A model generated the notes under the pieces. That model was not told the DNA's origin. It ran no database searches and saw only the letters and a list, made by a program, of their open reading frames with translations. From positions 1 through 42,950 of the forward strand of contig CAYZEE010000003.1 of assembly GCA_964477485.1 (NCBI GenBank): 42,950 nt of DNA, in the 5' to 3' direction. The stretch is from an uncultured Gammaproteobacteria bacterium. Its GTDB lineage: Bacteria; Patescibacteriota; Microgenomatia; Levybacterales; UBA12049. Below are positions 12,881 to 29,994 of the stretch, one piece after another. The translations under genes were made by a program, and so were the position numbers. The stretch's first letter is position 1. Every line of letters begins with the position of its first letter.

Positions 12881-12892
12881 GTGATAATTGCC

Positions 12893-14371
12893 TTATCTAT
12901 TGAATGAAAGCCCATTCCGTACAGGGGTATCAAATTCAAGCCACGTAACATTAGGTTCTGCCTTATTCAACTCTTCCATTAATTTGATACAGACCATTGT
13001 AAATGCGTCCATTAAATCATCATGCCTATATGTTCCATAATATAAAATTTGTTTTATTAATTCTTCGCATCCTTCTTCTGGAAATAATATTTTTCCATCT
13101 CTCATCCATGAACTTACCGCTTCAAGTCTTTTTTCCTTTGCAACAGTTACTCTTACATCTTCAAGCGTAATTCCCTGTTGTTCTAATTCTTGAATAACTG
13201 CCGGCTGAAAACCATTTGCTTCACAATAAAACGTCGAAGATATTCCTCCACCAATACTGTTATATAAAAGTTTAATTTGATCAAGAAGCTCTGGGAAGTC
13301 ATATTTATCATTAATTGGATATGGTTGAATAAAAATATATGGTTTTCCATCCATTTTATATGCTTTTGTTGTAACCATTGCTGTATAATCCGATCCTGTC
13401 TTTTTTGATATTGCTACATCAATACCAACTCCCGTATTTACAAGGTAATAATTTGATAACATTTGGTCGTAACGATGAATCCATTCAGGTTTGATAATTG
13501 CGCTAATTGCTGCTTGGGGGTTTAGCATGTACTCACTTTCCCAAGCTCTATCACTGGCAATATTTTGCTTTTCTTCCTCAATTATTTTTTTGTCAGGATA
13601 TCTTCCTTTCCAGGTAATTCTTCCACCTGGAGAAATAATGGGATATCTACGGACAACTCCTTTTTGTTTTTTCTCAAGAATGCGAGTAGCCAGTCTTCCA
13701 ATTAGATCATCGGGGTGAAGTTGCGTCCCAACGATAATAAAGCGAAACTTTTTTGCTTTTAATGAGTAGACATCTCTTGTGTACCAAGTAAATAATTTTT
13801 CACGACCTTCCACCGTGTTTGTGTCTTCTAGACCCTCAACGTCATCTAAAAGAATAACCTCAGGTCTTACATTTCCTTCTCTAATGCCACGAATGTTTTG
13901 TTCAACCGAGGCAACAGTAATACGCGCATCGTAATCTTTTAGATAAATAGTATATGATGACATTTCTGAATTATCTTCAGTAAATGGGCCAGCATCAGCT
14001 TTTAATAGAGAGTTATATTCTAGTTCGCGAGTGAGGTTTTTTGTAATATATTTTGCTTGCATTTGCGTTTTGGTAAAGATAAGGACAAAATGCTTTTTTT
14101 GCTTACCAAGAATTGACCAAAGAACGTAACAAAGACTAAAGATAGTTGACTTACCACATCCTCTAAACCCAAGAATAATTGAAAGGGGAATTTTATCATT
14201 TTCAGCGATCCGGAAGAACTCATAGTGAAATGAGGCAAGAGGGACATCAAAGTGATGCGATAAATATATGGCGAAAAAATAACCAATTTTTTCACTAGAT
14301 AGTCGTTTTCTTAGCTCCTGGTCATGGGCAATTTGTAGCATTTGTTCTTTTGTTAGTAGTTGTGTTTTCAT
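12893..14371 (-). CDS. Phage terminase large subunit-like protein
   Basis: Walker A GFRGCGKST, IRGIR, Walker B ILLDDVE, IVGTQLHPDDL, SEYMLNP; RNase H-like nuclease GIDVA...SDYTA, CEANGFQ, KEKR, HDDLMDA. Confidence 0.88.
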   Translation of the reverse strand: MKTQLLTKEQMLQIAHDQELRKRLSSEKIGYFFAIYLSHHFDVPLASFHYEFFRIAENDKIPLSIILGFRGCGKSTIFSLCYVLWSILGKQKKHFVLIFTKTQMQAKYITKNLTRELEYNSLLKADAGPFTEDNSEMSSYTIYLKDYDARITVASVEQNIRGIREGNVRPEVILLDDVEGLEDTNTVEGREKLFTWYTRDVYSLKAKKFRFIIVGTQLHPDDLIGRLATRILEKKQKGVVRRYPIISPGGRITWKGRYPDKKIIEEEKQNIASDRAWESEYMLNPQAAISAIIKPEWIHRYDQMLSNYYLVNTGVGIDVAISKKTGSDYTAMVTTKAYKMDGKPYIFIQPYPINDKYDFPELLDQIKLLYNSIGGGISSTFYCEANGFQPAVIQELEQQGITLEDVRVTVAKEKRLEAVSSWMRDGKILFPEEGCEELIKQILYYGTYRHDDLMDAFTMVCIKLMEELNKAEPNVTWLEFDTPVRNGLSFNR

Positions 14372-14376
14372 ATATA

Positions 14377-14769
14377 TTATTTAGATTTTTGTAGCATAGT
14401 TAATGCTTTTACGATAAGCTGCTCTTGTTCCTCGGTTAGCTTATATTCATGTTGTACATTTCCGAGTAGCTCGACACGAGTTGAATAATCTGTATGGTGA
14501 TGCTTTAGCCAAAAGATGACAGCAGTAAGTTCTCTTTCACGAATTGCTGATATTAACTGTGACTCCGCCAAGTCATTTATAAGCTGTTTTCCGTTTGCCA
14601 GCGCTTCATCGGTTTCTTTTTCAAATGCTTCATCAAGTTTTCGCCATCTGTAGTATGTTGCCCTGCTAATTCCTGTTTTCTCACAAACAATATGAACAAT
14701 TGGCGTTTTCTTAAGCATCTCAACTATTTTTTGTTTTTCTTTTTCTTGTCGATTTGTAATACTATTCAT
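14377..14769 (-). CDS. HTH protein (phBC6A51-like), putative small terminase
   Basis: HTH VCEKTGISRATYYRWRKLDEAF, DLAESQL, AVIFWLK; lies directly upstream of the TerL gene. Confidence 0.72.
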   Translation of the reverse strand: MNSITNRQEKEKQKIVEMLKKTPIVHIVCEKTGISRATYYRWRKLDEAFEKETDEALANGKQLINDLAESQLISAIRERELTAVIFWLKHHHTDYSTRVELLGNVQHEYKLTEEQEQLIVKALTMLQKSK

Positions 14770-16103
14770 GATATTTTTACTCCTTTTTTACCAGATAGAT
14801 TTTCCCAGCGTTTTTTAATCACTTCGGCATAGACAGGAGACTTTTCCATAACATAACAGCGGCGCTTCAATTTCTCAGCTGCAATAAGAGTTGAACCACT
14901 ACCACCAAATGGTTCAACAATTAAGTCTCCTCGTTTTGTTAATACTTTTATGTATGGAATTAAAATCTCAACTGGTTTAGTGCCAAACACTACTCCTTGC
15001 CCGGAGTTTTTCTCATCAGATGATCGAAATTCAATAAAATCTGTTGGTTGAGTCTTTTTACCTTTTTGGTACCCCTCCCAGTGGGGTTTTCCAGCTATTG
15101 CGTAAAGTGCTGTTTCATACTCTTCTTGTAGTCCATCAGCTTCTTGCTCAAGATTAAATGGAATGTCAGCTTTTGGTGATGCACCAACCATTGCAATATC
15201 GTGTTTTGAGAAGAACTTGTATTTTGCAGCAAAGCCTTGATGTCTGTTTGGTAAGTGCCAAACAAGCATGTTTTTTATTTTCCAGTACTTTTTCATTTCA
15301 CCCCAAATAATAGGAATATTTCGCCAGTTCTCATACACGATTATTGAGAAATTTTCTTTTTGTACCTTGGCTATATTTGCCATCCACTTCTCAGTAAAGT
15401 CAGGAGGCAGTACATCTGTTTCTAAATACTTTCTGTCTCGTTTGTACCCAAATCCTTCTGTGGGTTTACCATTTCTTTTTTTGCCATGTAAATAGTCCAG
15501 CAAATACGGCGGATCGGTAAAACACATTTCAGCTTTTTCTCCATTCATTAACTTTAACAATTCATACTCTATTGTTGAATCTCCGCACATAAGCTTACTG
15601 TCTCCCAGTTGCCATACATCACCTTTTTGGATTTCAATATTGCCAATGTGCATTTTCTTAAGTTCTTTTGCCAAATCAAATACTTCAGGCGTTTCGTCAA
15701 AACCAAATATGTGATCTAGCTCTTCGCTGCTAAATCCAACATCGTTTAAAAGAGAGGAATCAAAATCCGAAAGCAAACTCCAATCCCACTCTCCAGTATT
15801 CCTGTTAAGTCGAAGATTTAATTCCTTTTCTTTGGCTATATCTGAAATGTTGAGGTAAACAACCGGTACGTTTGAATATCCGAGATCTTTGGCAATCTTG
15901 AGCCTAAAGTGACCACCTATTACAATGTTTTTTCTGTTTGGTGCATTGTTGACAATTATTGGATCAACTAAGCCAAAGCGGGTAATGCTTTCAGTCAATT
16001 GCTTCTCCGCTTCCTTATCCCATTTTCTTGGGTTGTATGGCGCAGGGTTTAGTCCCGAAATTGCTACTTGTTGTATTTTTATGTTGTTCATATCTCTTTC
16101 CAT
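14766..16103 (-). CDS. ParB/Srx-domain fused amino-DNA methyltransferase (beta-class motif order)
   Basis: N-terminal LNPAPYNPR...SITRFGLVDPIIVN...IGGHFRL...LNRNTGEWD; GDVWQLG..KLMCGDST; FTDPPY precedes EPFGGSGSTLIAA. Start ATG 16103 has TATAAT 5 nt upstream. Confidence 0.9.
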   Translation of the reverse strand: MERDMNNIKIQQVAISGLNPAPYNPRKWDKEAEKQLTESITRFGLVDPIIVNNAPNRKNIVIGGHFRLKIAKDLGYSNVPVVYLNISDIAKEKELNLRLNRNTGEWDWSLLSDFDSSLLNDVGFSSEELDHIFGFDETPEVFDLAKELKKMHIGNIEIQKGDVWQLGDSKLMCGDSTIEYELLKLMNGEKAEMCFTDPPYLLDYLHGKKRNGKPTEGFGYKRDRKYLETDVLPPDFTEKWMANIAKVQKENFSIIVYENWRNIPIIWGEMKKYWKIKNMLVWHLPNRHQGFAAKYKFFSKHDIAMVGASPKADIPFNLEQEADGLQEEYETALYAIAGKPHWEGYQKGKKTQPTDFIEFRSSDEKNSGQGVVFGTKPVEILIPYIKVLTKRGDLIVEPFGGSGSTLIAAEKLKRRCYVMEKSPVYAEVIKKRWENLSGKKGVKIS

Positions 16104-16225
16104 ATTCAATTATATTGAGTTTTCTAATGGGACTTATACATTTTTCAAAAAGCCAATTTTTGAGTTTTGAGGCTAAAAGAAAATTTTGGTATACTTTGAT
16201 ACACTTTATAAATTAAGATTATGTA

Positions 16226-16285
16226 TTGACAAGACAAACGAGAAGTATTAAAATAGGTTAAGTAAAAATAGTTTACTATACCTAT
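16226..16285 (+). promoter_or_regulatory. sigma70 promoter of the defence operon with an overlapping inverted repeat
   Basis: TTGACA (16226-16231), 17 nt, TAAAAT (16249-16254). Inverted repeat ATAGGTTAAGTAAA-N5-TTTACTATACCTAT (16253-16285, 12/14 paired) ends at the hsdM ATG. Confidence 0.75.
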
Positions 16286-18019
16286 ATGTCATTGCCAAAT
16301 TGGATACATTCGCGATATTTAGCTCTTGCAGACCAATATAAAGAAGGAAGCTTCGGTTTTGAAGAGGCAGTGCAAGTATTGCAAAAACGCTTCGGAGACA
16401 AGGAAGATCAGGTCAAGTTGGTCATGTCTGAATTACGAAAAGCCCACTTTATTGATGTTGCCAGAAACGATGAAGATTCTCGTAAGAAAGTTTATACATT
16501 AACATCAGTATCGAATCAAAAAGAAAAAGGAAAATTAACCCGGGGTGACATCGACAGAGTTTTAAAAAAAGCTGCAGATCTTATAAGGACACGCGTCGAC
16601 TACTCATTCATCCTTTTACTTCTCTTCTACAAGCGATTCAGTGATCAATGGAACGTTGAGTACCGTAAAGCCTATCAGGAAGCGATACAAGATAAATTTT
16701 CAGATAAAGAAGCCGAAACAGAAGCAAAAAAGTCCGCCTATCACAGAATTAACATACCTGATGAGTACTCTTGGGAAGCGATTAGAAAAGATACTCTTAA
16801 GATATCCGAGAATTTTTCTCAGGCAATAAAAAGCCTTGCAGATCTCAATCCTACACTCAAAGAAACTTTTCAGCAGTTTGATTTTTCTGACTTTACTCGC
16901 AATCCGGAGAACAACGAGATTCTTCGTCAGCTTGTAGAGCTATTTAGCTCATACTCCTTCGAAAATGTATCGCCGGATATTTTGGGAGATGCTTATGAAT
17001 GGATACTTCGATATTTCGCTCCACAAAAGGCAAAAGAAGGTGAAGTTTTCACGCCCAGGGAAGTTATTCAATTAATGGTTGAACTTCTCGATCCCCAAGA
17101 GGGAGAAAGCGTATATGATCCGGCCGCGGGATCATCCGGAATGCTTATAGCAGCATATAAATATGTTGAAGAGAAGCATTCCAAAGCAAAAGCAGATTCT
17201 TTGTATTTGTATGGTCAGGAACAAAACCCAAAAACTCTCTCGCTTGCAAAAATGAATCTTCTTATTCACGACATTACAAATGGGCTTATGGCTCAGGGTG
17301 ACACACTAAGATTTCCAAAATTTAAGGATGGCGACACATATAAAAGATTCGTGCATGTTTTGGCAAATCCCCCCTGGAATCAAGATGGATATGATGAGCA
17401 AATCTTAAAACAATCAGAATATTGGCGTGACAGATTTCCTTATGGATTTACGTCCATGCAATCAGCAGATTTTGCATGGTTGCAGCATATGATAGCTTCG
17501 AGTAAGAAAAAAGTTGCGGTTATATTAGATACTGGAGCGATAACAAGAGGTGGTAAGGAAAAAGCCATAAGACAAAAGATTGTCGAGATGGACCTTATTG
17601 AAGCGGTCATACTCTTGCCGGAAAAACTATTTTATAACACAACAGCTCCTGGAATAATCTTAGTTATAAATAAGAAAAAAAGTGAAATTCTTAAGCATAA
17701 AATAAAATTTATCAACGCTTCATTAGAATTTACTGCAGGCAAGCCACTAAATACACTTAGTGAGAAGAATATTGAGAGCATTTTAGATGCCTTTAACTCA
17801 GATAAAGATGAAAAAAATATTAGTAAAATCATTTCCTTAAAAAAAATTAAGAAGGAAAATTTTAATTTGTCACCATCAGTATATGTTGACCTTACAAAAA
17901 CAAAAGTACATCGTGAAAAAGAAGAAATAATGTCTGAATTAGAAGTTTTAGAAGAAGAAAGCCAGAAAGCATATCAAAATATTAAAAAGCTTTTTAGCAA
18001 TAAGAACAATGAAAAATAG
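16286..18019 (+). CDS. hsdM: Type I R-M methyltransferase subunit with an N-terminal winged-helix extension
   Basis: KAADLIR, DILGDAYEWIL, GEVFTPREV, YDPAAGSSGML, YGQE, LANPPWN. The first ~75 aa look like a wHTH. Confidence 0.95.
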   Translation: MSLPNWIHSRYLALADQYKEGSFGFEEAVQVLQKRFGDKEDQVKLVMSELRKAHFIDVARNDEDSRKKVYTLTSVSNQKEKGKLTRGDIDRVLKKAADLIRTRVDYSFILLLLFYKRFSDQWNVEYRKAYQEAIQDKFSDKEAETEAKKSAYHRINIPDEYSWEAIRKDTLKISENFSQAIKSLADLNPTLKETFQQFDFSDFTRNPENNEILRQLVELFSSYSFENVSPDILGDAYEWILRYFAPQKAKEGEVFTPREVIQLMVELLDPQEGESVYDPAAGSSGMLIAAYKYVEEKHSKAKADSLYLYGQEQNPKTLSLAKMNLLIHDITNGLMAQGDTLRFPKFKDGDTYKRFVHVLANPPWNQDGYDEQILKQSEYWRDRFPYGFTSMQSADFAWLQHMIASSKKKVAVILDTGAITRGGKEKAIRQKIVEMDLIEAVILLPEKLFYNTTAPGIILVINKKKSEILKHKIKFINASLEFTAGKPLNTLSEKNIESILDAFNSDKDEKNISKIISLKKIKKENFNLSPSVYVDLTKTKVHREKEEIMSELEVLEEESQKAYQNIKKLFSNKNNEK

Positions 18020-19178
18020 CAACTTAAATACTAAAAAAAAATTTACCTTACTTGGCGAACTTATTACACTGCGGAAAGGAGTAAAGCCAGATTTAGTGAA
18101 GTCTAATGGGATTAACTGCTTGCCTTACCTATCTGCCGATTATTTTAGGACAGGAATCGCCCAAAGCTATGTAGACATAGAAGAATCTAACCGCTCTGTA
18201 AAACTTAATAAAGAAGATGTGGCGCTTATCTGGGATGGATCTAATGCAGGCGAGGTTTTTAGTGGATTAGAAGGTGTTTTATCATCAACTATGGTGAAGG
18301 TAGAGCCAACAAATGGAATGCTGAAGCCTCTTCTTTATTACTTTTTGAAAACACAGTTTAATACATTAAATAGTAAAACTACTGGAACGACTATTCCGCA
18401 TGTTAGCCGTGATGCATTAACAAAACTACAATTGTATGTACCTAATTCTTCAGATCAGCAAAAGATAGTTTCAATCCTATCAGAAATAGAAAAGGCAATA
18501 ACCACTGAAAATAAACTTTTAGCCACATATAAAGAGTTAAAAATGACTTTAATGTCGACGCTTTTTACTCAAAATGACGGTGGTTTCATAACGCGCAAAT
18601 TGTCAGAAATAGCAAAAATTGAAAGAGGTAAATTCGCGCATCGGCCTAGAAATGATCCCGAATTTTACGGAGGCAATATACCTTTTATACAAACCGGGGA
18701 CGTAACGTCTTCAAATGGTTATGTAAAAAACTATTCACAGACACTAAACGAAAAGGGATTGGCAGTTAGCAGAATGTTTTCAAAGGGAACAATTGTCATA
18801 ACAATTGCTGCCAATATTGGATACACAGGGATATTAGAGTTTGAAAGCGCGTTTCCAGACAGTTTAGTCGGTATTTCTCCAAATGTTAACCTGATTGATA
18901 CTGAATATCTAAATTATTATTTACAGTCGCAGCAGCCCGTAATGGACAGTCTTGCACCTAGAGGCACTCAGAAGAATATTAATATTCAATTCTTGCTCCC
19001 CTGGCCAGTCCCTGTAACCACAATGGAAAAACAAAAAAACGCAGTAGCTCTGCTTAAAGATGTCGATAGAAAAATTACGCTTTGCCAAAAAAAGAAAATT
19101 GCATATCATGAGTTATTTAATTCCGTTTCATACTCACTATTAATAAAAGGGGAGGATTTACAAATTTACAATATCTGA
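18009..19178 (+). CDS. hsdS: Type I R-M specificity subunit
   Basis: Two TRDs (GTTIPHVS; GNIPFIQTGDV...GTQKNIN), each followed by a helical spacer (QQKIVSIL...); lies between hsdM and hsdR. Confidence 0.92.
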   Translation: MKNSNLNTKKKFTLLGELITLRKGVKPDLVKSNGINCLPYLSADYFRTGIAQSYVDIEESNRSVKLNKEDVALIWDGSNAGEVFSGLEGVLSSTMVKVEPTNGMLKPLLYYFLKTQFNTLNSKTTGTTIPHVSRDALTKLQLYVPNSSDQQKIVSILSEIEKAITTENKLLATYKELKMTLMSTLFTQNDGGFITRKLSEIAKIERGKFAHRPRNDPEFYGGNIPFIQTGDVTSSNGYVKNYSQTLNEKGLAVSRMFSKGTIVITIAANIGYTGILEFESAFPDSLVGISPNVNLIDTEYLNYYLQSQQPVMDSLAPRGTQKNINIQFLLPWPVPVTTMEKQKNAVALLKDVDRKITLCQKKKIAYHELFNSVSYSLLIKGEDLQIYNI

Positions 19179-19179
19179 T

Positions 19180-22100
19180 ATGTCGAAAATGTTAGAGCAA
19201 AAATTAGTCGAAGATTATTTTGTTGAAGAACTCCAAAAAAGAGGATGGAGTTTTGTTAGGCCCGAAAACCTTGACCGCACTTCGTTTAAAGACCCTTTAC
19301 TGCTAAGTAACCTCAAAAAAGCAATATTAAAACTAAATCCCGACCTGGGAATCGGAGACGAAGAAATGAAAGTTATTTTGGATCAGCTTACTCTTACATC
19401 AAGCGGTCAGGAAGGATGTAAAAAAGTGTTGCATCTTATCAAGTACGGAATTCCAGTTAAATTCGAAAAAGAAAGAGTCATAAAAAATGTAAAGCTTATC
19501 GACTTTGGAAACGTTCAAGAAAATGAACTGATTGTTTCTAGACAGGTTATTTTTTACGGAACAGAAGAAGCACGACTTGATACTGTCCTTTTCGTTAATG
19601 GAATCCCACTTGTGGATATGGAATACAAAAATCCAGCAAGTAAGGATGAAAATTGGCAGAAAGCGTACAAACAAATAAAAAACTACGAGAAGATTGCTCC
19701 GGAGTTGTATAAATACATGCAATTAGGGGTTGCTGTCGGAGCTGTTGCCAAATACTTTCCAATTGTCCCCTGGCTTGATGAAGTTGATATCTATGAGTGG
19801 AAAGAAGAAAGCATGGATGAAGTTGACTCAACGCTTGCTTTGTTTGAGCCCAACAAATTCTTAGATATCCTTAGAAACTTCCTTTTCTACAGAGAGCAAA
19901 GAAAATATGTCACCAAAGTGGTAGCTCGCTATATGCAGTATCGCGCGGCAAATAGCATTGTTAACCGAGTTAATGATAACCTTCACGGTAAGGATGAGAG
20001 AAATAAGGGATTAATTTGGCACTGGCAGGGATCAGGAAAGACTCTCACCATGATTTTTGCTGCGCATAAATTGTATTTTGATCGGTTATTAGAGGCTCCT
20101 ACGGTCTTTTTTGTCGTGGACAGAATCGAGCTTGAAACTCAGATATTTGAAGAGCTTGCGCAGTTAAAACTCAATATCGCTCCGGAAGTTATTGAAAATA
20201 TTGGCGAATTAAAGGCTTGGGTTAAAGCAGATGGATACAAGGGTAAACGAGGGTTAGCAGTTGTCCTCATCCATAAATTTCAACCAGAAGAAATGAGGGA
20301 TGTAAATAAAGAATTGGAAAGTATACAAGGGCAAACAATTTCTTCAAGAAAAAATGTGATTGTTTTCCTAGACGAAGTCCACCGTTCACAGTATGGGCTC
20401 ATGGCAGCACAGATGAAAAAGATGTTAAAAGGAGCTTTTTTCTTTGGTTTTACGGGAACGCCAATATCAAAAGATGACAGGGATACTTATGAATCTTTTG
20501 GGTATCCATTACAGAAAGAACGATATCTTGATAAATACTTTATGGATGACGCATTGAGGGACAAATTTACTCTTCGTATCCTTTATCAACCACGGCTTGA
20601 TAAAGTCCATCTCCAGAAGGAACTGTTACAAGGATTTTTAGACGCTGAGTTTGAAGATATTGATCAGGCAGATAAAGTCTATGTTGAAAAGAAGGTCTCA
20701 AGAAGAGTAACCCAAGCTAAAGTATTTCTTGAAAATCCACAAAGAATTGATGATATTGCAAAAAATATCGCAGAGCATTACAAAGAGAATTTGGATGGAA
20801 AGTTTAAGGCCATGGTAGTAGCGGGAAGCAGAAAGGCTTGTGTTTTATATAAGAAAGCGTTGGATAAATACCTTCCTCTAGAGTATTCGGAGCTAGTTGT
20901 CACATTTACTGACGGTGATGAGCAAATCCTCAAAGACTACAAAGCAGAAATGCAGAAAAAGTACCCTGGTAAGGATGATAATGACATCCGAAAAGAAATA
21001 AAAGCAAGTTTTAAAGAAGAGAGTCTTCCGAAGATAATTATTGTGACCGACATGCTGTTGACGGGATTTGATGTGCCAATACTGCAAACTTTGTATTTGG
21101 ATAAACCACTTAAAGAGCATCGACTCCTTCAGGCAATCGCTCGTACAAATAGACCATATAAGGACGTAAAACCGGCTGGACTTGTTATTGACTATGTTGG
21201 GATTTTAAGTGATATTGAAAAAGCATATAAGTCTTATTATGAAGAACCAGAAATCAAAGACGCACTCTTCAAATACGAAAGTCTTGTTGACGAGTTTATA
21301 AGCCTGTTAAAGGAGCTTGATGTAATCTTTAAAGAAATTCCCCATACATACGAAAGAAATGTATTTTTTGAGGCATTCGATGGGCTAAAAAATGATGAAG
21401 ATGTTGAGAAAACATTTACGGAAAGATATTGGACACTCCGGAAGATATTTGAGATGTTGGGCTCAAATGAGATAAAGGTTGACTATCTTGATGAGTTTAA
21501 TTGGTATTCGGCAATTTACAATTACTATCTTCGCTTAAAGAACCAAACTGAAGATAAAAATGAGTTAGTAAATAGGTTCTTGAGCAAATCGCTAAAGTTT
21601 ATTCACCGTTCGACACAAATTCAAGAAATAAAGAACGACTTGCCAGTACTTGAGTTTAACAATCACTATCTTGATAGTATTAAAAAAGCAAAAATGAGTG
21701 CTGGGGAAAAAGCCGCAAACATGGTATTTACTCTTGAGAGATTGGTTCTTGTTGATCAGGTCAAAGATCCAATATACAAGTCCTTGCAGGACAGGGTTGA
21801 AAAACTTGTTGAAGAGTGGCGACATAAAGCCGAAAATTATGAAAACGTATACCAAGAAAGTTTGGATATCTTCGAAACAATTAATGCGGAACAAAAGAAG
21901 AGAAATGAGTTAGGTTTATCTCTTCTTGAATACAGTATATTTACCGAATTGGCGCCATGGGTAAAAGATCAAACCCTGCTGGTCTCACTTTCAAAAGAAC
22001 TAAACGGTAACATTAAGCAGTACATGCTTCCAGAATGGCAGGATCAACCGGCGCTTCGCAAAAAAGTAGAAGAGGGATTGAGGACGTTTCTAAGAAGAAA

Positions 22101-22194
22101 GCTTAAGGCAGAGTTAAATGTTTCCATTGAGGATCTAGATAAAGCATACAGCCTTATCTTAGATATACTACTTAATCATGAAAAGTGGAATTAA
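19180..22194 (+). CDS. hsdR: Type I R-M restriction subunit
   Basis: RLDTVLFVNGIPLVDMEYK nuclease motif, HWQGSGKT, VVDR, DEVHRSQYG, FTGTP, MLLTGFD, QAIARTNR. Confidence 0.96.
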   Translation: MSKMLEQKLVEDYFVEELQKRGWSFVRPENLDRTSFKDPLLLSNLKKAILKLNPDLGIGDEEMKVILDQLTLTSSGQEGCKKVLHLIKYGIPVKFEKERVIKNVKLIDFGNVQENELIVSRQVIFYGTEEARLDTVLFVNGIPLVDMEYKNPASKDENWQKAYKQIKNYEKIAPELYKYMQLGVAVGAVAKYFPIVPWLDEVDIYEWKEESMDEVDSTLALFEPNKFLDILRNFLFYREQRKYVTKVVARYMQYRAANSIVNRVNDNLHGKDERNKGLIWHWQGSGKTLTMIFAAHKLYFDRLLEAPTVFFVVDRIELETQIFEELAQLKLNIAPEVIENIGELKAWVKADGYKGKRGLAVVLIHKFQPEEMRDVNKELESIQGQTISSRKNVIVFLDEVHRSQYGLMAAQMKKMLKGAFFFGFTGTPISKDDRDTYESFGYPLQKERYLDKYFMDDALRDKFTLRILYQPRLDKVHLQKELLQGFLDAEFEDIDQADKVYVEKKVSRRVTQAKVFLENPQRIDDIAKNIAEHYKENLDGKFKAMVVAGSRKACVLYKKALDKYLPLEYSELVVTFTDGDEQILKDYKAEMQKKYPGKDDNDIRKEIKASFKEESLPKIIIVTDMLLTGFDVPILQTLYLDKPLKEHRLLQAIARTNRPYKDVKPAGLVIDYVGILSDIEKAYKSYYEEPEIKDALFKYESLVDEFISLLKELDVIFKEIPHTYERNVFFEAFDGLKNDEDVEKTFTERYWTLRKIFEMLGSNEIKVDYLDEFNWYSAIYNYYLRLKNQTEDKNELVNRFLSKSLKFIHRSTQIQEIKNDLPVLEFNNHYLDSIKKAKMSAGEKAANMVFTLERLVLVDQVKDPIYKSLQDRVEKLVEEWRHKAENYENVYQESLDIFETINAEQKKRNELGLSLLEYSIFTELAPWVKDQTLLVSLSKELNGNIKQYMLPEWQDQPALRKKVEEGLRTFLRRKLKAELNVSIEDLDKAYSLILDILLNHEKWN

Positions 22195-22705
22195 ATATCG
22201 ACATATTGTAAGACCAGTTAAGTATCCGCGTATTGAATTTAAGAGCGGAGAGCTTGAAGTCATTGCTCCAAAAAACGCTGACATTCCTTCTTTGCTAATA
22301 AGGCACCATACATGGGTTAATGAAAAGCTGAGGTTTATAGAAAAAAATAGCAGAGTTAAGAAAAAAGAACTAGAAGAAAGAACAGATAAAGAGCTGGATA
22401 GTTACATTAGGCGTTGCATTAGAAGAGCTGAAAAGTTGCTAAACGTCCAACATTCCTACTATCGATTTCGAACTATGAAAACCAAATGGGCCACTTGTAG
22501 TTCCCGAGGAGTAATTACCTACAACAGAATTGTGACTTACCTTCCGAATGAATTGATCTGGTATATAACGCTTCATGAGATGGCACACCTAATAGTAGTC
22601 GGGCATAATAAAAAGTTCTGGCACTTAGTAAGCAAGCATATAAAAGGCCCCGAAGAATACGAAAGAAAATTATATTCGTATTGGTTCACAATATATAAGA
22701 ATTAA
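22178..22705 (+). CDS. YgjP/DUF45-like zinc metallohydrolase
   Basis: MKTKWATCS, YITLHEMAHL...HNKKFW; this is the family's usual position downstream of hsdR. Confidence 0.88.
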   Translation: MKSGIKYRHIVRPVKYPRIEFKSGELEVIAPKNADIPSLLIRHHTWVNEKLRFIEKNSRVKKKELEERTDKELDSYIRRCIRRAEKLLNVQHSYYRFRTMKTKWATCSSRGVITYNRIVTYLPNELIWYITLHEMAHLIVVGHNKKFWHLVSKHIKGPEEYERKLYSYWFTIYKN

Positions 22706-22733
22706 CAAGGGCTAATTTTTTTCACAAAAACAT

Positions 22734-23807
22734 ATGAGTAAAAATAGTTGGCAATTTCTTGAAGAATATTTAGAAAAAATAGCAAAAAGGTGCGGATTTC
22801 GTTATTTACGTGCCTCAACCGGAGACAGCCAAATGGGTGGAGATGGTGGAGGAACTTTAATAATTGAAAAGTATGAATTTTATTGGAAGTTTGAGTGTAA
22901 ACAAAGAGTTAAAAGTATTGATAAACCAATAGTGTTGAACGAAATATCAGATAAAATACTTGAGATTATGTCTCAGGATAGAACCAATTGGCCTGATGTG
23001 TTATGCCTTTTTACTCCACATCATACGCTTTATGATCAATTAGAGAGAAAAATTAATGCCTTGGAAAAGAACAAGAGAATTCCTTTTAAGGTTGTTATTT
23101 GGCATTATAAATATTTAATAGAAGTTTTACATATCCTCTTGGAAGATATCGATATTAAAAAGATATACCCGGATCTTCAACTAATTTACCCCAGTGGACA
23201 AACAGATAAAGATTTACTTTTAGCCAAATTCATTGCAGAAATTGAAAACAAGACGAAAGAAGGACATCTAATAAAAAATTCGTATATTCATGCGGAGGAT
23301 CTTTCATATAAGACCATTAAATTAGTAGTAAATGTAGTTCAAGTAGAAGAAGATGGCGAAAATAAAAAATTATATGAAATCAATATGCTTAATGAAAAGT
23401 TTCTGATTAAGCCTGAAGACATTGATAATATTGCAATTAAAAAAGTACCAATCGCAAAACATCAATCGGTAAATTCTACCTCTAGCGTGACGAATGTAAA
23501 CGATTCTACTATTAGAACTGAAGAGATTGGAGAAATTGAGGTGGTTGACTGGAATCAAAGAAATAAAGATATTGACAATAAGAGAAGACAAATAATAGAT
23601 TTATTTAAAAAATTAAAAATAGAAGGTAAAACGGAAAATCTATATGATCTACTAAAAAAACAGGCAATTGATCAAAAAATTATCGTTAAAGTAATTAGCA
23701 ATGATTTTTTACTAAATTTGGTTCCCTTTGTTTATCTAAATGAGAAAAATTTCGAAACTCAAAATCAAATTAGTTTTGTAGTAATGGAGGATAAAATATA
23801 TGAGTAA
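22734..23807 (+). CDS. Putative Mrr-like PD-(D/E)XK endonuclease with an unknown C-terminal region
   Basis: WQFLEE...GF...QMGGDGGG...WKFECK fits a restriction-endonuclease fold; the remainder is unrecognised. Confidence 0.55.
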   Translation: MSKNSWQFLEEYLEKIAKRCGFRYLRASTGDSQMGGDGGGTLIIEKYEFYWKFECKQRVKSIDKPIVLNEISDKILEIMSQDRTNWPDVLCLFTPHHTLYDQLERKINALEKNKRIPFKVVIWHYKYLIEVLHILLEDIDIKKIYPDLQLIYPSGQTDKDLLLAKFIAEIENKTKEGHLIKNSYIHAEDLSYKTIKLVVNVVQVEEDGENKKLYEINMLNEKFLIKPEDIDNIAIKKVPIAKHQSVNSTSSVTNVNDSTIRTEEIGEIEVVDWNQRNKDIDNKRRQIIDLFKKLKIEGKTENLYDLLKKQAIDQKIIVKVISNDFLLNLVPFVYLNEKNFETQNQISFVVMEDKIYE

Positions 23808-26800
23808 TCGCGGAGGACAAGCAACACAAAGTGGAATTCATTCACAGAATTGGGCAGCAATGTCACTTTTCTTGCAACATATTAGTCGTCCTGATTTTAG
23901 ATATATTGGTTTTGAAGCAGATAAATTAGAAGATTTTTACTTAGTATTTGAGAGCGATAAAAAAATTATTTGCGAATCTAAAGCTTATAAAGTTAGCTTT
24001 CCTGAATTTAAAAAAATCGTCGGTAACATAATAAAACATGGACAAGTAACTCAAGAGGATGAAATATTAATCATTTGTGAGCAAGCCGATAAAAATCTAA
24101 AAACTCTAATTGAAAACTTTAATTACTATGATGGCAAAACTGTAGAAAAAATTTCAAAAGAAAAGAAACTAACTTCTGAAGAATTAAAACTTCTTCCACA
24201 AATACGATTTTGGGAGGTATCCCAGGACATTTCAAGGAAAACTGCAGAGTTACTTATTTCCCAATTATTAAGAGTTTGGGTTCCTACTCATAAAATTGAG
24301 GAAATTGTTAGGGACTTATTAGAAAAAGAAGTATATCAAGGTTCGCAAAGAGGAACAACTTTATCTAGGGAAGATTTCATAAAAAAGCTTGATGATAAAA
24401 AGCGACTAATTTTTGAAGATGCAAGGTACGAAAAAGATAAAGAAAAAAAAGAACAGGAACTAAAACAATATATAAATGATTTAAAAAATCCTAATAGTCC
24501 ACAATGGTCTAATAACTCATTAAGTATACTTTCTGATAAGCCAGACCAACATTACTGGGTACTCAAGATGCTGGGAGAAGAAAAAGACTTAAGCCTAAAA
24601 GAATGGGATCCGTTATGGGTAATGAGTACTCAAGGAGCATTTTCATTAGAAGTTTTTAATATTTTTAAAAAGAACACTTCAACTCAAGAAAATCAAAATT
24701 ACTTCATTAAGTTTGCCCCTAAACTTATAGAAAATAATTCAAATATGTTTCATGAAGAATTTATAAAAACGGATATAGTCGATATTTGCGGAAATATAAT
24801 ACAAAGCACTCGCCAATATGACAGTGAAGTCTTTGAATTAATCCAAAGACTATTTGAGCCTAGTATAAGTAAATACTTTTATGCAAAACACACAAGAGAT
24901 AATCGTCACGAATGGGAGCAAATTAGTCTTTTGTTGCTAAACTTATATAAGGCTTCAGAAGATAAAACATTAAAACAAAAAATTGTAGACTATATCTTTG
25001 ATAAGTTTAACCTTGTTGCTGATGATGGACAATATTGGCACTATACTCCATCAACAATTTTCACCATTATCCAATTGCACTTTAACGAAGATCCTCAAGA
25101 AGGAATTATAGAATTGACTAAGTTATTTTCTGAACAATTAGACAAGTTTTATAAAAAATTCGGTAAAAAATTGGCGTTCAAGGGATGGGAACATATGGGA
25201 AGCGGTATTTCACAAATGGGAAATAATTTTTCCATTCAAGACAGAATGTTTGTAGAAGCAATTTTAAAACCTTTATTTAGGAGCCTTTACGAAAAGAATA
25301 AAGATAATGCTTTAAATATCATAGCAGAATGTATCTCTCGAAAAACTAATAATGTCTCAAGAGAAAAGCCAGATTTCATCAATCGTTCTGTTCTGCCAGT
25401 CTTATTTAGCGAATACAAAGAGGAAACTTACGGTAGCTTAGCTTTTGAGATTTTAAGTGATTTTATAAAAATGAGAAAAGGAATTCCTTGGAAAGTAGAT
25501 TTAATTTTCCAAGAATTGAGAGGAGATTATACTGATGAACAAAAATGGGCTCTTGTAAAAGTGAGCCTTGATGAATATAACAATTTACCCGCTAATGTCT
25601 TTGTTGAGCAAATAGTTTCAAGCTTGGGAGCAAAAGGCAACAAAGATGCCTTGAGTGTAATTGCTGAATGGGTAAAAAACCCTGAGTATAATCGCAGACA
25701 AATAATTGGTTCTTTTAGTGTGATGGATAATATATCTAAACTCTTGGATAACAAGGACATCTTCGATGAAGCCGTAGATATATACAAAAATTATATTTTT
25801 GCTGATAACTTTATAACTAAAGACAACGACTGGGAAACATGGGATGTGGCAAAAGTATCATGCAAAATTCTTATAACTAACGAAAAGGTTGGAATTGAGA
25901 TACTCCAAAACATTAATTCATCGAAGATACTTACCCCAAACCAACAAACGTTAATTACCTGTGCAATAAATGACATTCCTGAGGACAATAAAGAATTGCT
26001 ATTAAAGGTGTTCCAGAAGTTTCTAGATCCGTTACTAAAAGATTTAGGATATGACATTTCTAAGATTGAGGAACGAATCACAAAGAGACATTGCCGTGAG
26101 CAAATAGTTCAATTTGCAGACAAATTGGCAAAGGCCAGATGCTTCAATGAAGCGTTGTCAGTAGTTAATGTATTTATCAATGACTCAGACCCAATACTCG
26201 AAAACTATGACGATGATAAAAAGGGAAACTTTAATTATCATAAGAAAGTCATTGAGGGTGATGATAACCCAACAATTAATACTGTTAGAGGTTTTTGTGC
26301 TTGGGTGTTACAAAAATTTGCTTCTCTCTACGGAAGGGACTATATTCCACAAATTTTGCCTTTAGTCAAGAAACTTTCTCAAGATCCTAACTATTATGTT
26401 CGAGTGCAGGCATGCGTTCCGTTATTAGAACTTGTAAAAAACAGAAATACAGTTCTTCCAGATAATTCTAAAGTGCGATTTGTATCAGTTGAAACAGCCC
26501 AGGCAATTGAAGATATCGCATTTGAAATGCTCAATAATAAGGAAAATCATAAACTTCCATCGGTCATGCAACATATAGCGATGGTTTTTACTTACATGAG
26601 GACTATTCCTCAAGAGAAAGCTTACCAAGTTTTAGAAACCTTCTTAATAGATGAATACCCCAAAAAGGATAATCAAAGAAAACATTCGACCTATTTAGCC
26701 GATGTATTAAGTGAAGCGGCCCCCTTATACATCTTTTTTGCAGAATATAGAGAAGATGCTTTCAAGGATTGGCCTAAGGATTGGGCAAAGTTAGGAAAGT

Positions 26801-27396
26801 TTAACAGCAAGCCATTTAAAGACCTATTGACGAAGCTAGTGAGAGATGGGTCTTCTGAAATAAAAGCCATTTTTGCTTGGCAATTTGCTAGATTACCTGA
26901 TGAAGTAAAAACAACACCAAAATTTGATGAAACGATTGGAATCTCCGCACGATATTTAGAAGAAATGTCACAAACATATGATCATGAAACATTTAATAAT
27001 ATTTATCGTTTTGTCGAAGATTATGTAGATTCACATTATGCAATCTGTATTAATCTTTGGAAAAAATGCATCATTACCGAGAGCAAATATTTTACTGATA
27101 ACTTTTCAAAAGATAAGTTTATGGATATGTATTGGTGGCCTTTTTTCTACAACGGTAAAATTCTACTAAAAATTGCAGAGCAAGAGGGTGTTGAGGAATT
27201 CCTAAAATGGTTCAAAATACTAGTAGATTATCCTATTGAGTTATTGGTCGCTAATGATTTAGATATTGCTGTAGAGTATCTTACCGGATTAAAAACAAAT
27301 AAGGAAGAGATTGAATATCTATTTAAAAGGTTAATTGAGAGAAATTCTAAATATTACACCGATAAACAAAATTGGCTAAATCAAAATAATAAATGA
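23800..27396 (+). CDS. Large protein: Cap4/DUF4297-like dsDNA nuclease N-terminus plus alpha-helical (HEAT-like) body
   Basis: GGQATQSGIHSQNWAA...IGFE...LEDF...ICESK is a Cap4-type pattern; LSQDPNYYVRVQACVPLLEL is HEAT-like; no Walker A motif seen. Confidence 0.6.
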   Translation: MSNRGGQATQSGIHSQNWAAMSLFLQHISRPDFRYIGFEADKLEDFYLVFESDKKIICESKAYKVSFPEFKKIVGNIIKHGQVTQEDEILIICEQADKNLKTLIENFNYYDGKTVEKISKEKKLTSEELKLLPQIRFWEVSQDISRKTAELLISQLLRVWVPTHKIEEIVRDLLEKEVYQGSQRGTTLSREDFIKKLDDKKRLIFEDARYEKDKEKKEQELKQYINDLKNPNSPQWSNNSLSILSDKPDQHYWVLKMLGEEKDLSLKEWDPLWVMSTQGAFSLEVFNIFKKNTSTQENQNYFIKFAPKLIENNSNMFHEEFIKTDIVDICGNIIQSTRQYDSEVFELIQRLFEPSISKYFYAKHTRDNRHEWEQISLLLLNLYKASEDKTLKQKIVDYIFDKFNLVADDGQYWHYTPSTIFTIIQLHFNEDPQEGIIELTKLFSEQLDKFYKKFGKKLAFKGWEHMGSGISQMGNNFSIQDRMFVEAILKPLFRSLYEKNKDNALNIIAECISRKTNNVSREKPDFINRSVLPVLFSEYKEETYGSLAFEILSDFIKMRKGIPWKVDLIFQELRGDYTDEQKWALVKVSLDEYNNLPANVFVEQIVSSLGAKGNKDALSVIAEWVKNPEYNRRQIIGSFSVMDNISKLLDNKDIFDEAVDIYKNYIFADNFITKDNDWETWDVAKVSCKILITNEKVGIEILQNINSSKILTPNQQTLITCAINDIPEDNKELLLKVFQKFLDPLLKDLGYDISKIEERITKRHCREQIVQFADKLAKARCFNEALSVVNVFINDSDPILENYDDDKKGNFNYHKKVIEGDDNPTINTVRGFCAWVLQKFASLYGRDYIPQILPLVKKLSQDPNYYVRVQACVPLLELVKNRNTVLPDNSKVRFVSVETAQAIEDIAFEMLNNKENHKLPSVMQHIAMVFTYMRTIPQEKAYQVLETFLIDEYPKKDNQRKHSTYLADVLSEAAPLYIFFAEYREDAFKDWPKDWAKLGKFNSKPFKDLLTKLVRDGSSEIKAIFAWQFARLPDEVKTTPKFDETIGISARYLEEMSQTYDHETFNNIYRFVEDYVDSHYAICINLWKKCIITESKYFTDNFSKDKFMDMYWWPFFYNGKILLKIAEQEGVEEFLKWFKILVDYPIELLVANDLDIAVEYLTGLKTNKEEIEYLFKRLIERNSKYYTDKQNWLNQNNK

Positions 27397-27929
27397 GATT
27401 GGAAATAGTAGAGAAATTAGATAAGCTTCTTTTAAAACATATACCTTTCAATGAGGAGTGTGAAGTTGTTTATTTCATGGTTGAAATAAGAAAAATCATG
27501 GAGCATGATAACGATTCAAAATATAAACTTCTTCGATTTTTTTGTGATTGGACTGTTCACACAAAAAAAGATAGGAGTATGAGTGGAATCATAGACATTG
27601 TAAACGAAATTGATCGCCTTATTTCTAGTGTTGATAAAATTACTACTCTACAAAATGAACAAATTCTTAAATTTTTAGAAATGAATGAGTTGAGAAAAGA
27701 ACTTTCGCAATTTCTTACTTCCCATTCCCTACCAAGTGATTTATGCAAAGATGATCACAATTGGTCAACATTTGTTGATATACTTGCACAAGTTCTTTCG
27801 GGTCAACCAATCCTAAATCCAATAGAGACAATTGTATCTATAGAGATATTCTCAAACTCTTTAGGGAGTTCTATAACTGTGGATTTCGGAACAGGTAGAG
27901 GCTCTGCAACAGCAGGGTTTGGAAAATAG
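27393..27929 (+). CDS. Hypothetical protein, possibly HEPN-like
   Basis: ATGA overlap with the upstream gene; helical; VEIRK and LRFFCDWTVH resemble HEPN E...R-x-H motifs only loosely. Confidence 0.5.
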   Translation: MRLEIVEKLDKLLLKHIPFNEECEVVYFMVEIRKIMEHDNDSKYKLLRFFCDWTVHTKKDRSMSGIIDIVNEIDRLISSVDKITTLQNEQILKFLEMNELRKELSQFLTSHSLPSDLCKDDHNWSTFVDILAQVLSGQPILNPIETIVSIEIFSNSLGSSITVDFGTGRGSATAGFGK

Positions 27930-27935
27930 TACAAA

Positions 27936-28511
27936 CTAAGTTATCAACCTTAATACAAACGGTACGATTCTTGTTGTAGGTAATTTATATTTCCATGCCA
28001 CCTTGTAATACCACCTAAGATATAGTTTCTGTAATACTTCGCGCTGATGCTCAAAAATAGTGTCATTATCAATATTTACTAGCTTATTCCCGACTGCTCG
28101 TTCTATAGCGATACTTAATAGCGCTGATTCGTCATCATAGTCAGGGTTGAAGAAATAACTTGACCTATTTATTTTCGCAGCGTAAAGCGTAACCAGTTCG
28201 TTTTCAATCGCAAGATAAACACTTATTTTCTCTCTATCAGGCATTTTCTGGTTGAATGATGGGATTTTCTCTAATACAATTGATTCCCATAGGGGTTTAT
28301 AGTCGAGATTTAACGCACGAGATAATTTTCCAATTTCAGGTATGGCATTTTTCTTGAAATATTGCTTCCGTAGTTCTCTTCCTGTTAGCTTACTATCAAG
28401 TTTATACTTTTTCTTGATGCCCTGAGTTATGCGATAGTTTGCATAAGATCGGACAAATAGAGTGAGTCTTACCTTCTTAAGAGTTAATCGGGCTTTGATT
28501 TGTTCTGCCAT
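27936..28511 (-). CDS. Hypothetical basic protein, probable island backbone gene
   Basis: 191-aa ORF with a K/R-rich N-terminus, co-oriented with the recombinase and terminase genes, near the right end of the island. Confidence 0.65.
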   Translation of the reverse strand: MAEQIKARLTLKKVRLTLFVRSYANYRITQGIKKKYKLDSKLTGRELRKQYFKKNAIPEIGKLSRALNLDYKPLWESIVLEKIPSFNQKMPDREKISVYLAIENELVTLYAAKINRSSYFFNPDYDDESALLSIAIERAVGNKLVNIDNDTIFEHQREVLQKLYLRWYYKVAWKYKLPTTRIVPFVLRLIT

Positions 28512-28563
28512 AAATCGGGCAGAATTAGCCTATTTTACAATAAACAGCCTGGATAATTAAAGA

Positions 28564-28628
28564 CTATATCAATCTATATCAGAAGATTTTGAGAACCTCT
28601 TTTTTATAGTGTCTCATTTGTCTCATTT
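28564..28628. repeat. Two short tandem direct repeats
   Basis: CTATATCA at 28564 and 28574; GTCTCATTT at 28611 and 28620. Confidence 0.6.
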
Positions 28629-28673
28629 AGCCTCGGCATGATACAATCCAAAAAGAGGGTTATAAGGCCTAAA

Positions 28674-28699
28674 GGGTTCCAGACCCGTATGGCTCACAA
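28674..28699 (+). repeat. Degenerate copy of the tRNA-Glu 3' end (candidate att site)
   Basis: GGGTTCcagaCCCGTAtgGCT-CACAA versus GGGTTCgaatCCCGTAggcGCTaCACAA at 10677-10704. Confidence 0.5.
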
Positions 28700-28700
28700 A

Positions 28701-28774
28701 GTCGAGGCAAGTCTATAACCTAAGCCGTCACGTTCTCAACATAAAGATCGCGGGTTCGATTCCCGCAGGCGGTA
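28701..28774 (+). pseudogene. Decayed tRNA-Glu(CTC)
   Basis: Intact T arm GCGGG-TTCGATT-CCCGC and anticodon loop TTCTCAA; 35/43 identity to the 3' half of the intact tRNA; anticodon stem (TCACG/CATAA), D arm and acceptor stem are broken. Confidence 0.75.
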
Positions 28775-28783
28775 TACTTCGAC

Positions 28784-29217: not shown

Positions 29218-29994
29218 ATGGAATCGTTGAGAAGAAACGGAGAATTGCCTTATAAACCTGGCGATGAAATTCCTATTGAAATTGGAGATTTAATATTTCC
29301 CTTTGCGGATCCGGCATGCCACTACGACAGAAACAGCGTAAGTACAACTGCTGAAACAAGACTGCGTCTAAATCTTAATTTAGGCGGTAATGAAATTAGA
29401 AGCCTTAGAATTCTTTGCGAAATTACGACTGCAGAAGGAAATGGAATTGAGATAATTCCTTTTCACCGAGAAGCCGGATATATCATAACAGGAGACGATT
29501 TTGATTTAGAAAAAAGAAGAAAAAAATTACTTGAGTCCATAAGAAACTATGACGGATTTGGAATTAATGATGACTTTCCTTTGGGTCTTAGAATTATTGC
29601 TAATGGCAGCGCCCTTATAGAAGACGGGCTTGGCATTTTTGCCGGGTTTAATCAACGACATGAGAGAAGAATTATATTTAATCCGGATGTTGCCCGTTTG
29701 CTGAAGGCAATAAGATGCCACGCTAGATTAGACGGGATGGAATTTGAATCTAAATTGTTTCCCGCTCTCCCAACTGAAGTTCAATTAACGATTGACAAAG
29801 ATGACTATGACGAATACTGCGGAGATTTTTATCCCTTAGATACCGGACCATTGGCAGGGGAAATGGAAGGCAGCACTTGTTCTTTGGAAGACGACGGAAG
29901 TGATCTTGAAATAGGCGTAGGACATGAATTGTTTTTTGCTGACGATGAGAAAGAAATAAGAAGAATAGGTATAGGATTTACTACTGTTTCTTAA
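29218..29994 (+). CDS. Hypothetical acidic protein
   Basis: 258-aa ORF filling the gap; TGgTATAAT 9 nt upstream; no family recognised. Confidence 0.7.

Follow-up and report, generated by a model that had tools for sequence, protein, structure and literature searches.

The DNA stretch analysed here, referred to as the window, comprises positions 1 to 42,950 of contig CAYZEE010000003.1 (forward strand; GenBank assembly GCA_964477485.1), which was deposited as an uncultured Gammaproteobacteria bacterium and is placed by GTDB in the Patescibacteriota (Microgenomatia; Levybacterales; UBA12049). It carries a complete type I restriction-modification (R-M) operon (16286..22194, + strand), in which hsdM, hsdS and hsdR were all matched by Pfam and PADLOC, followed by a gene for a YgjP-like zinc metallopeptidase whose 5′ end overlaps the end of hsdR, and by three further genes on the same strand, here called A, B and C, which are the subject of this work (Table 1). 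Reading of the junctions placed 28 nt between the stop of the YgjP-like gene (22705) and the start of A (22734), an 8-nt overlap between A and B, and an ATGA overlap between B and C, exactly as given, together with the gene sizes, in a first-pass annotation made by a model from the letters alone. That annotation had also described the three genes as poorer in G+C than hsdR on the basis of a few lines counted by hand; its counts for the 60-nt lines that start at 23581, 24061 and 20101 (12, 15 and 26, in that order) were exact, and the per-gene G+C content agrees with it, being 0.292 for A, 0.322 for B and 0.324 for C against 0.363, 0.357, 0.371 and 0.360 for hsdM, hsdS, hsdR and the YgjP-like gene and 0.361 for the whole window. 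This drop, of 4 to 7 points, sets in at A, which fits a separately acquired cassette. A consensus scan placed a promoter-like site, matching at 11 of 12 positions, ahead of hsdM at 16226-16254 and found no terminator-like site on the + strand between 15.9 and 30.1 kb. Among public sequencing runs, three DNA runs from a single study contained the stretch, and no RNA run was listed. Searches of Pfam, NCBIfam, PHROGs and PADLOC 2.0 with A, B and C returned nothing above threshold, and for PADLOC 2.0 this agrees with the earlier description of an unrecognised system. Each of the three genes has database homologues, and they are therefore no chance frames.

Gene B would code for a nuclease joined to a very long helical repeat. 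Its AlphaFold model, based on an alignment of 27 homologues (mean pLDDT 84.8), starts with an alpha-beta-beta-beta-alpha-beta core (helix 15-27, strands 33-38, 46-50 and 55-60, helix 67-80, strand 88-93) and is all helical beyond about residue 210, with no alpha/beta domain in that part. When the model was compared with 48,161 chains using an all-against-all structural aligner (VIA), the Cap4 chain 6vm6_A ranked first, with a Z score of 16.5 and a root-mean-square deviation of 4.0 over 192 aligned residues; model residues 4-204 were superposed on chain residues 14-228, a part of the chain which we take to be the nuclease domain of Cap4. The next matches were HamA of Hachiman (8zue_A, Z 14.2) and LmuA of Lamassu (9ux8_C, Z 12.7). 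This domain was picked up by VIA and missed by Foldseek, which with the whole model returned generic HEAT proteins only (CAND1, importin-beta and SF3B1, E ~1e-7). In the VIA search, ARM/HEAT proteins matched residues 560-1100 at Z 10-16, and eight of the 27 family members showed a weak Pfam HEAT_2 match.

The residues expected for catalysis are well kept in B. E39, D45, E59 and K61 are invariant in the alignment, in a D...(D/E)xK arrangement, and Q16, E39, D45, E59, K61 and D87 are all retained in 31 of 36 homologues. The exceptions are one E59Q, one protein cut by a contig end and four without the domain. Cap4_nuclease clusters made up eight of the 30 matches in an Atlas language-model search with B, while comparison of the single A and B sequences with PDB sequences gave nothing relevant. 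Overall, residues 1-210 of B are predicted to be a Cap4-type nuclease domain. The first-pass annotation had proposed such a nuclease, which stands for these residues; it had overlooked that some 80% of the protein is a HEAT/ARM solenoid. Among 5.8 billion proteins B had 80 homologues, full-length or nearly so (~1200 aa), of 33-60% identity and named only ‘hypothetical protein’ wherever the source gives a name; a profile search retrieved 498 cluster representatives at E ≤ 1e-3, of which 294 reached E ≤ 1e-30.

Gene A appears to encode a second nuclease. In the same protein collection it had five homologues, the closest with 56% identity, to which the upstream open reading frames (ORFs) of four related loci (L004, L025, L055 and L056) could be added. 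The alignment of A leaves E10, Q33, G35, D37, E54 and K56 invariant; the D37...E54-x-K56 motif is kept in eight of eight sequences and falls on strands 35-44 and 47-56 of the model, whose pLDDT is ~50-65 in the N-terminal part and 85-95 in the C-terminal part. With the N-terminal half, VIA listed Avs3 (Z 7.5), Avs4 (6.9), AF1548 (6.8), FokI (6.5), LlaBIII (6.5) and MspJI (6.4), matches to restriction-endonuclease-like nucleases that are consistent in kind though each lies below the safe Z. Pfam gave two sub-threshold rows, DUF7579 (E 0.057) and DUF7872 (E 0.065), with no Mrr_cat or other nuclease family. There is thus moderate evidence, mainly from the model, for a predicted restriction-endonuclease-like domain of the Mrr/FokI/Avs type at the N-terminus of A. 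The earlier proposal of an Mrr-like nuclease gains from the invariant D...ExK motif and from the Z scores of 6.5-7.5 to Avs3, Avs4 and FokI, and loses from the missing Mrr_cat match and the low-confidence model. Structure prediction, which had been suggested at that stage as a check for nuclease folds, found them in both proteins, strongly in B and moderately in A. Several other candidates for A were set aside: matches of the C-terminal domain to Csx29, separase, RsAgo or SPARTA APAZ (Z 3.8-5.6) were treated as noise, full-length Foldseek matches to Cap4 and SPARTA (TM ~0.2) rested on the nuclease domain, and the A family proved unrelated to the Mrr-like partner family described below (hhalign probability 0.1%).

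The association of A with B was examined in 40 loci encoding relatives of B, among them 23 labelled as candidate phyla radiation (CPR)/Patescibacteria, seven as ‘uncultured Gammaproteobacteria’, three as Deltaproteobacteria, one as Pedobacter and one as Woesearchaeota; two database homologues of B came from Heimdallarchaeaceae. Of the 40 loci, 33 have an ORF of at least 90 aa directly before B and on its strand, ending where B starts. Six of the remaining seven are truncated by the end of the contig, and the seventh, L003, has B without a partner gene. The partners belong to unrelated families. The largest, found in 12 loci, is Cap4-like and homologous to the nuclease domain of B itself (hhalign probability 95.5%, E 1.3e-8); its members show weak matches to Cap4_nuclease in Pfam and to LmuA, HamA and SAVED-nuclease models in PADLOC, and one of five scanned matches PF14130 at E 0.003, below the cut-off. 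Eight loci carry a Schlafen/AlbA_2 partner (Pfam, four of four scanned, E 1e-12 to 1e-19), six an Mrr-like one (weak Mrr_cat in two of four scanned) and two a CHAT-like one (weak CHAT in one of two scanned). The A family accounts for two more, or three with the A of the window, and there are three singletons.

These partner types are intermixed on a FastTree phylogeny of 36 B proteins (midpoint root, without support values). The DNA identity between L025 and L026, of 89%, spans exactly the codons of B, first to last (the B proteins being 92% identical), and is absent upstream, where L025 carries an A-like partner and L026 a Schlafen partner; the swap occurs precisely at the gene boundary. In a sample of 400 other genomes from the phylum of the window, B was present in four and the A family in two, both of them genomes with B and each with A abutting it, while the Mrr-like partner family gave one strong match, next to B, and two weak ones inside larger ORFs.

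Joint action of A and B is best supported by fusions. In the B homologues P0253 and P0280 the Cap4 domain is replaced by an A-like module, joined to the solenoid and matched by the whole A family with both of its domains (hhalign 97.5%, E 4.9e-12 and 98.6%, E 1.1e-15, respectively), and in P0275 a Cap4-like partner is fused at the same position (98.9%, E 3.7e-17). The best 150 of the 498 representatives include about 21 solenoid-only proteins of 914-1020 aa, three with a different N-terminal module and two with a short capH-like helix-turn-helix (HTH) before a full B; in four loci that were fetched, a solenoid-only B stands behind a nuclease gene. From the fusions and the solenoid-only forms, the solenoid is the constant part of the system, with the effector fused, separate or both. 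It is the conserved core of the family and presumed to be a sensor or scaffold. As a separate observation, the homologues P0281 and P0297 start with an XRE-type HTH of ~70 residues that matches the PADLOC model capH (E 1.1e-9), which hints at self-regulation of the gene.

We therefore consider that A and B probably form an uncharacterised two-gene conflict cassette, most likely directed against phages or other mobile elements, to which C would be an unrelated add-on. This proposal builds on what the domains are, on the invariance of the catalytic residues, on a partner that is exchangeable or fused and on the placement at the ends of R-M operons. In the mechanism that we propose, the solenoid of ~1000 residues would carry effector modules at or beside its N-terminus, of which the window has two, namely the Cap4-type DNase fused within B and the nuclease A encoded upstream. 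The solenoid would keep these nucleases inactive and serve as the sensor. A protein derived from the infection might bind it, as the tail-tube protein binds the HEAT region of DSR2, and such binding would free or activate the nucleases and lead to degradation of DNA, possibly at the expense of the cell. The cassette would travel as a unit and tend to insert 3′ of R-M operons of any type, where co-transcription with the R-M operon would make it a second layer behind restriction.

A number of observations weigh against this proposal. We infer the defence function of A and B from domains and neighbourhood only, and sensing by the solenoid, binding between A and B and a DNA target are each steps that we infer in turn. 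Pfam Cap4_nuclease (PF14130) at E ≤ 0.05 detected none of the 27 B family members, so that the nuclease of B is a structural relative and not a member recognised by sequence, and a profile of the domain found nothing relevant among PDB sequences. The nuclease matches of A are all under Z 8, below the level at which the tool is trusted, and fall on the low-confidence part of the model, while VIA gave no confident match for the C-terminal domain. The likeness between the B solenoid and DSR2 appears architectural only: B had no sequence match to DSR2, which was found neither among the top 50 structural matches of B in VIA nor among the Foldseek rows listed, the B model being above the recommended search size. 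No partner-specific stretch, in the form of localised divergence, could be seen in B when pairs with different partners were compared with pairs sharing a partner type, and the occurrence of near-identical B proteins with unrelated partners would fit a docking surface of a generic kind as well as an absence of direct binding. The intermixing of partner types is read from a tree whose nodes carry no support, and 20 of the 33 partner-bearing loci are not next to R-M genes. Lastly, B had no match in phage records (50,697), plasmids (72,556) or IMG/VR contigs, a result that says little either way.

Comparison with known systems suggests that DSR2 is the closest analogue in layout. Its helical HEAT-repeat region forms a cavity that binds the phage tail-tube protein, switching on the N-terminal effector (PMC11263360). 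Both proteins consist of an N-terminal effector followed by long helical repeats, which in B extend over ~1000 residues without an NTPase. The two differ in that the effector of B is a Cap4-type nuclease and that of DSR2 a SIR2 NADase (no SIR2 match to B in Pfam or PADLOC), in that B is ~200 residues longer, and in the second, exchangeable effector gene that accompanies B upstream; we know of no such gene for DSR2.

The closest relatives of the effector itself are Cap4, HamA and LmuA, with which residues 1-210 of B share the nuclease fold and the D...ExK motif. Known nucleases of this type are regulated by a SAVED domain, by a helicase or by an SMC protein, whereas here the nuclease is fused or adjacent to a HEAT/ARM solenoid. 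Thus, unlike Cap4 of CBASS, B has no SAVED/CARF domain, being all helical after residue 210, and no CD-NTase cyclase was found among the scanned ORFs of the window or 129 neighbours at related loci; likewise neither the HamB helicase of Hachiman nor the LmuB SMC protein of Lamassu was matched by Pfam or PADLOC in A, B, C or the partner families. Avs proteins resemble the cassette in placing exchangeable N-terminal effectors, Mrr-like or Cap4-like, on a large repeat-bearing sensor, and the best matches of A are the N-termini of Avs3 and Avs4. Against this, neither A, B and C nor 27 B homologues gave a Pfam match to a STAND or P-loop NTPase, the repeats are of the HEAT/ARM and not the TPR kind, and the effector can be a separate gene. 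The first-pass annotation had already seen no cyclase, STAND ATPase or SMC partner, and indeed none was present in Pfam scans of the window ORFs or of the 27 B homologues.

PrrC is an ABC-ATPase fused to an anticodon nuclease and lies inside a type Ic operon. PrrC and RloC share with the cassette a latent nuclease that is encoded in one operon with type I R-M genes, which underlies an earlier comparison with PrrC-type systems. The cassette differs in that A, B and C have no ATPase domain, their nucleases are of DNase-type fold, and they are not embedded among the hsd genes: they come at the 3′ end, after hsdR and the YgjP-like gene, and the type of R-M changes from locus to locus. Nuclease-NTPase systems form complexes between the nuclease and its partner, according to bioRxiv 10.1101/2025.07.10.664194; the A-B cassette differs from them in having no NTPase. 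A full-text literature search retrieved no paper on the A-B cassette or on any fusion of a Cap4/DUF4297 nuclease with HEAT repeats. LdgA and DdgA are defence proteins reported in PMC12366544 to be nearly restricted to Patescibacteria and without known homology.

Should A and B work as proposed, they would represent a new family whose effectors, Cap4-type and others, are under the control of a ~1000-residue HEAT/ARM solenoid. The whole-gene effector swaps, together with the split, fused and double-effector forms, would offer a natural system for the study of effector-sensor docking, and the joining of the cassette to the 3′ end of unrelated R-M operons would be a testable case of layered immunity. 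The finding would also bear on the CPR/Patescibacteria, to which more than half of the loci (23/40) are assigned by record title.

The description of the genes as appended to an R-M operon was confirmed for the window, and the arrangement recurs in other loci. Of the 33 partner-bearing loci, 13 have the pair directly 3′ of R-M genes on the same strand, a rate given without a matched background, and the same holds for the window and L056. The upstream system is of type IIG in L002, L007, L009, L034 and L039, of type III in L012, L021 and L033 (in L033 together with GmrSD), of type I in L019, L026 and L040, and of type II in L004 and probably L014. In 13 of the 15 R-M-linked cases (13 loci, window and L056) the gene of the restriction operon and the partner gene overlap or lie no more than 57 nt apart, and no same-strand R-M gene was found downstream of the pair among the related loci. 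At one position shared by L009 and L054, a type IIG R-M system, a Schlafen-type partner and B stand together between mreC and mreD, which suggests that R-M and cassette can move as one unit. Since 20 of the 33 loci lack adjoining R-M genes, the linkage is a tendency and not a rule.

It is conceivable from this placement that the cassette is not autonomous and is tied to R-M, either as a PrrC-like guard or backup, set off when R-M is inhibited or overwhelmed, or as a factor that processes DNA cut by restriction. The position at the 3′ end of four types of R-M operon with close or overlapping genes speaks for such a tie, as do the facts that the pair was never found upstream of, or within, an R-M operon, that R-M, partner and B have apparently moved jointly into mreCD, and that no + strand terminator-like site separates hsdM from C in the window. 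However, the majority of partner-bearing loci have no R-M gene directly upstream, and the associated R-M systems are of unrelated types, so that a specific protein contact is unlikely. Furthermore, the 92% identical B proteins of L026 and L025 stand behind hsdR in the former and away from any adjacent R-M operon in the latter, and neither the ABC-ATPase nor the anticodon-nuclease domain of PrrC was found by Pfam. On balance we judge a dependence on R-M to be unlikely.

More doubtful still is the idea that the solenoid acts as a generic guard of restriction, sensing a signal shared by infections that get past R-M of whatever type and then releasing whichever effector is plugged in. Candidate signals would include proteins that mimic DNA to block restriction, or the products left when restriction fails. 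The presence of the cassette at the 3′ end of operons of all four types (I, II, IIG and III) would thereby be explained; such a guard would, if it existed, be the first backup immune module independent of R-M type, found mainly in ultra-small CPR bacteria with few known defence systems.

Our preferred reading, a cassette of A and B, leaves gene C outside. C is translationally coupled to B in the window, yet it lies beyond the conserved cassette and is an independent family. A profile built from C and two locus homologues retrieved 322 proteins of ~178 aa, mostly from Patescibacteria where named, and the closest homologues were 81% identical. C encodes a small, probably helical protein. An Atlas language-model search gave weak, generic helical-repeat look-alikes, with recognition below the benchmark of the tool, and a sub-threshold match (E 2.8e-4) was obtained to a PHROG without assigned function. 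The possibility of a HEPN protein, raised in the first-pass annotation, found no support in these look-alikes or in the alignment. R33 is conserved and H38 is an arginine in both aligned homologues, so that the R-x4-H of C is not a conserved HEPN motif (Rx4-6H), and Pfam and NCBIfam returned no HEPN family. Within the family, D52, W53, V55, H56, T57, K59 and D60 are invariant, along with a C-terminal G-F-G. Elsewhere C directly follows a methyltransferase with an MvaI/BcnI restriction endonuclease, an Mrr_cat protein, a methyltransferase, or a zinc-ribbon/Trypsin_2 gene, and it has the look of a small gene in its own right, with a tendency to stand last in defence-type operons.

A single three-component system of A, B and C, which had been the primary reading of the first-pass annotation, is accordingly most improbable in our view. 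It would draw on the ATGA overlap in the window, on the C homologues found ~24 nt after B in L039 and ~4 kb downstream of B in L002, and on two more C homologues whose contigs, of 6954 and 6197 bases, are equal in length to contigs of B homologues, which is suggestive only. Against the three-gene module, C abuts B in just one of the 40 loci (L039), and the 11 of 400 sampled genomes with C share none with the four that have B. In addition, the C family is about four times the size of the B family in the same database (322 versus 81 proteins), C follows quite different genes elsewhere, and the identity to the closest homologue (81% for C against 60% for B and 56% for A) points to a separate history.

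The window operon and the cassette are part of a larger mobile unit. An element of ~18 kb, at 10626-28776, encloses the R-M operon and A-B-C between a tRNA-Glu gene and a degenerate repeat of its 3′ end, which is the probable right border; the stem in this repeat was also flagged by the terminator scan. The element has genes for a large serine recombinase, both terminase subunits and a ParB-N6/N4 methylase, is without virion genes beyond the terminases, and may be a satellite-like or decayed prophage element. It also holds an ORF of 191 aa that converges on C, and another, of 258 aa, lies near the cassette; neither had a match in Pfam, NCBIfam, PADLOC or PHROGs.

A ParB-methylase of the same kind stands divergently upstream of the cassette in L011, L017 and L025, and large serine recombinases flank at least seven B loci. 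One may thus ask if the cassette is not a defence system at all and is carried as cargo of a mobile element, for example as an addiction or exclusion module or a DNA-processing factor, as its position inside the tRNA-Glu-bounded element of the window and the recurrence of these element genes elsewhere would allow. Many loci, however, lack such element genes and some cassettes lie between housekeeping genes, as in mreC/mreD of L009; the exchangeable effectors (Cap4-like, Mrr-like, Schlafen and CHAT) are typical of immune systems, and searches of viral contigs and phage records gave no match to B. We give this explanation only a very small chance.

Slimmer yet is the chance that A, B and C are independent single-gene systems stacked in a defence island, as the first-pass annotation had alternatively suggested: defence islands do stack unrelated genes, A and B each have their own nuclease domain with an intact catalytic motif, and L003 has B alone, but the A family and the Mrr-like partner family occur essentially only beside B, three of the five A homologues lie on contigs equal in size to those of B homologues, P0253, P0275 and P0280 unite a partner module and the solenoid in one protein, and a solenoid-only B relies on the upstream nuclease gene for any catalytic domain.

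Table 1 Positions of the features discussed, in the window unless a related locus is named
Feature	Position	Strand	Size, basis or remark
Gene A	22734..23807	+	ORF, 357 aa
A, residues ~1-175, predicted nuclease domain			Model
A, residues ~190-355, beta-rich domain			Model; no confident fold match
Gene B	23800..27396	+	ORF, 1198 aa
B, residues 1-210, predicted Cap4/HamA/LmuA-type PD-(D/E)xK nuclease domain	23800..24429	+	Model, structural search
B, residues 211-1198, predicted all-helical HEAT/ARM-type alpha-solenoid	24430..27396	+	Model, structural searches
Gene C	27393..27929	+	ORF, 178 aa
hsdM	16286-18019	+	Pfam N6_Mtase, 1.5e-98; PADLOC
hsdS	18009-19178	+	Pfam Methylase_S, 1e-35; PADLOC
hsdR	19180-22194	+	Pfam HSDR_N/SWI2_SNF2, 2.5e-59; PADLOC
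YgjP-like zinc metallopeptidase gene	22178..22705	+	Pfam PF01863, E 1.4e-27
tRNA-Glu	10626-10700	+	ARAGORN; left border of element
Large serine recombinase	10877-12214	-	Pfam; PHROGs phrog_95 integrase, 2.3e-59
Terminase large subunit	12893-14371	-	Pfam; PHROGs phrog_38, 1.3e-79
Terminase small subunit	14377-14769	-	Pfam/PHROGs scans
ParB-N6/N4 methylase	14766-16109	-	Pfam/PHROGs scans
Degenerate copy of tRNA-Glu 3′ end (T-arm and acceptor end)	28745-28776	+	Comparison by eye with 10668-10700; probable right border
ORF converging on C	27936-28511	-	191 aa
ORF near the cassette	29218-29994	+	258 aa
Type IIG R-M, Schlafen-type partner and B between mreC and mreD	L009:3549-14286		Same place as L054
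C family member, last gene behind R-M, Mrr-like or trypsin-like genes	L043:1486-2079		
C family member, as above	L045:1501-2061		
C family member, as above	L048:1414-1893		
C family member, as above	L044:1486-2034		
~360-aa family downstream of B	L006:3753-4841		
~360-aa family downstream of B	L015:2609-3709		
~360-aa family downstream of B	L019:13366-14460		
~360-aa family downstream of B	L025:12292-13371		
~360-aa family downstream of B	L026:11664-12770		
~360-aa family downstream of B	L036:6525-6920		
Colicin E5 ribonuclease domain protein	L038:12583-13635		~1 kb downstream of B

Two minor observations concern the region downstream of B in the related loci. A family of ~360 aa, absent from the window and with no Pfam or PADLOC match, is encoded just behind B in six of the 40 loci, and the deltaproteobacterial locus L038 has a gene for a protein with a Colicin E5 ribonuclease domain.

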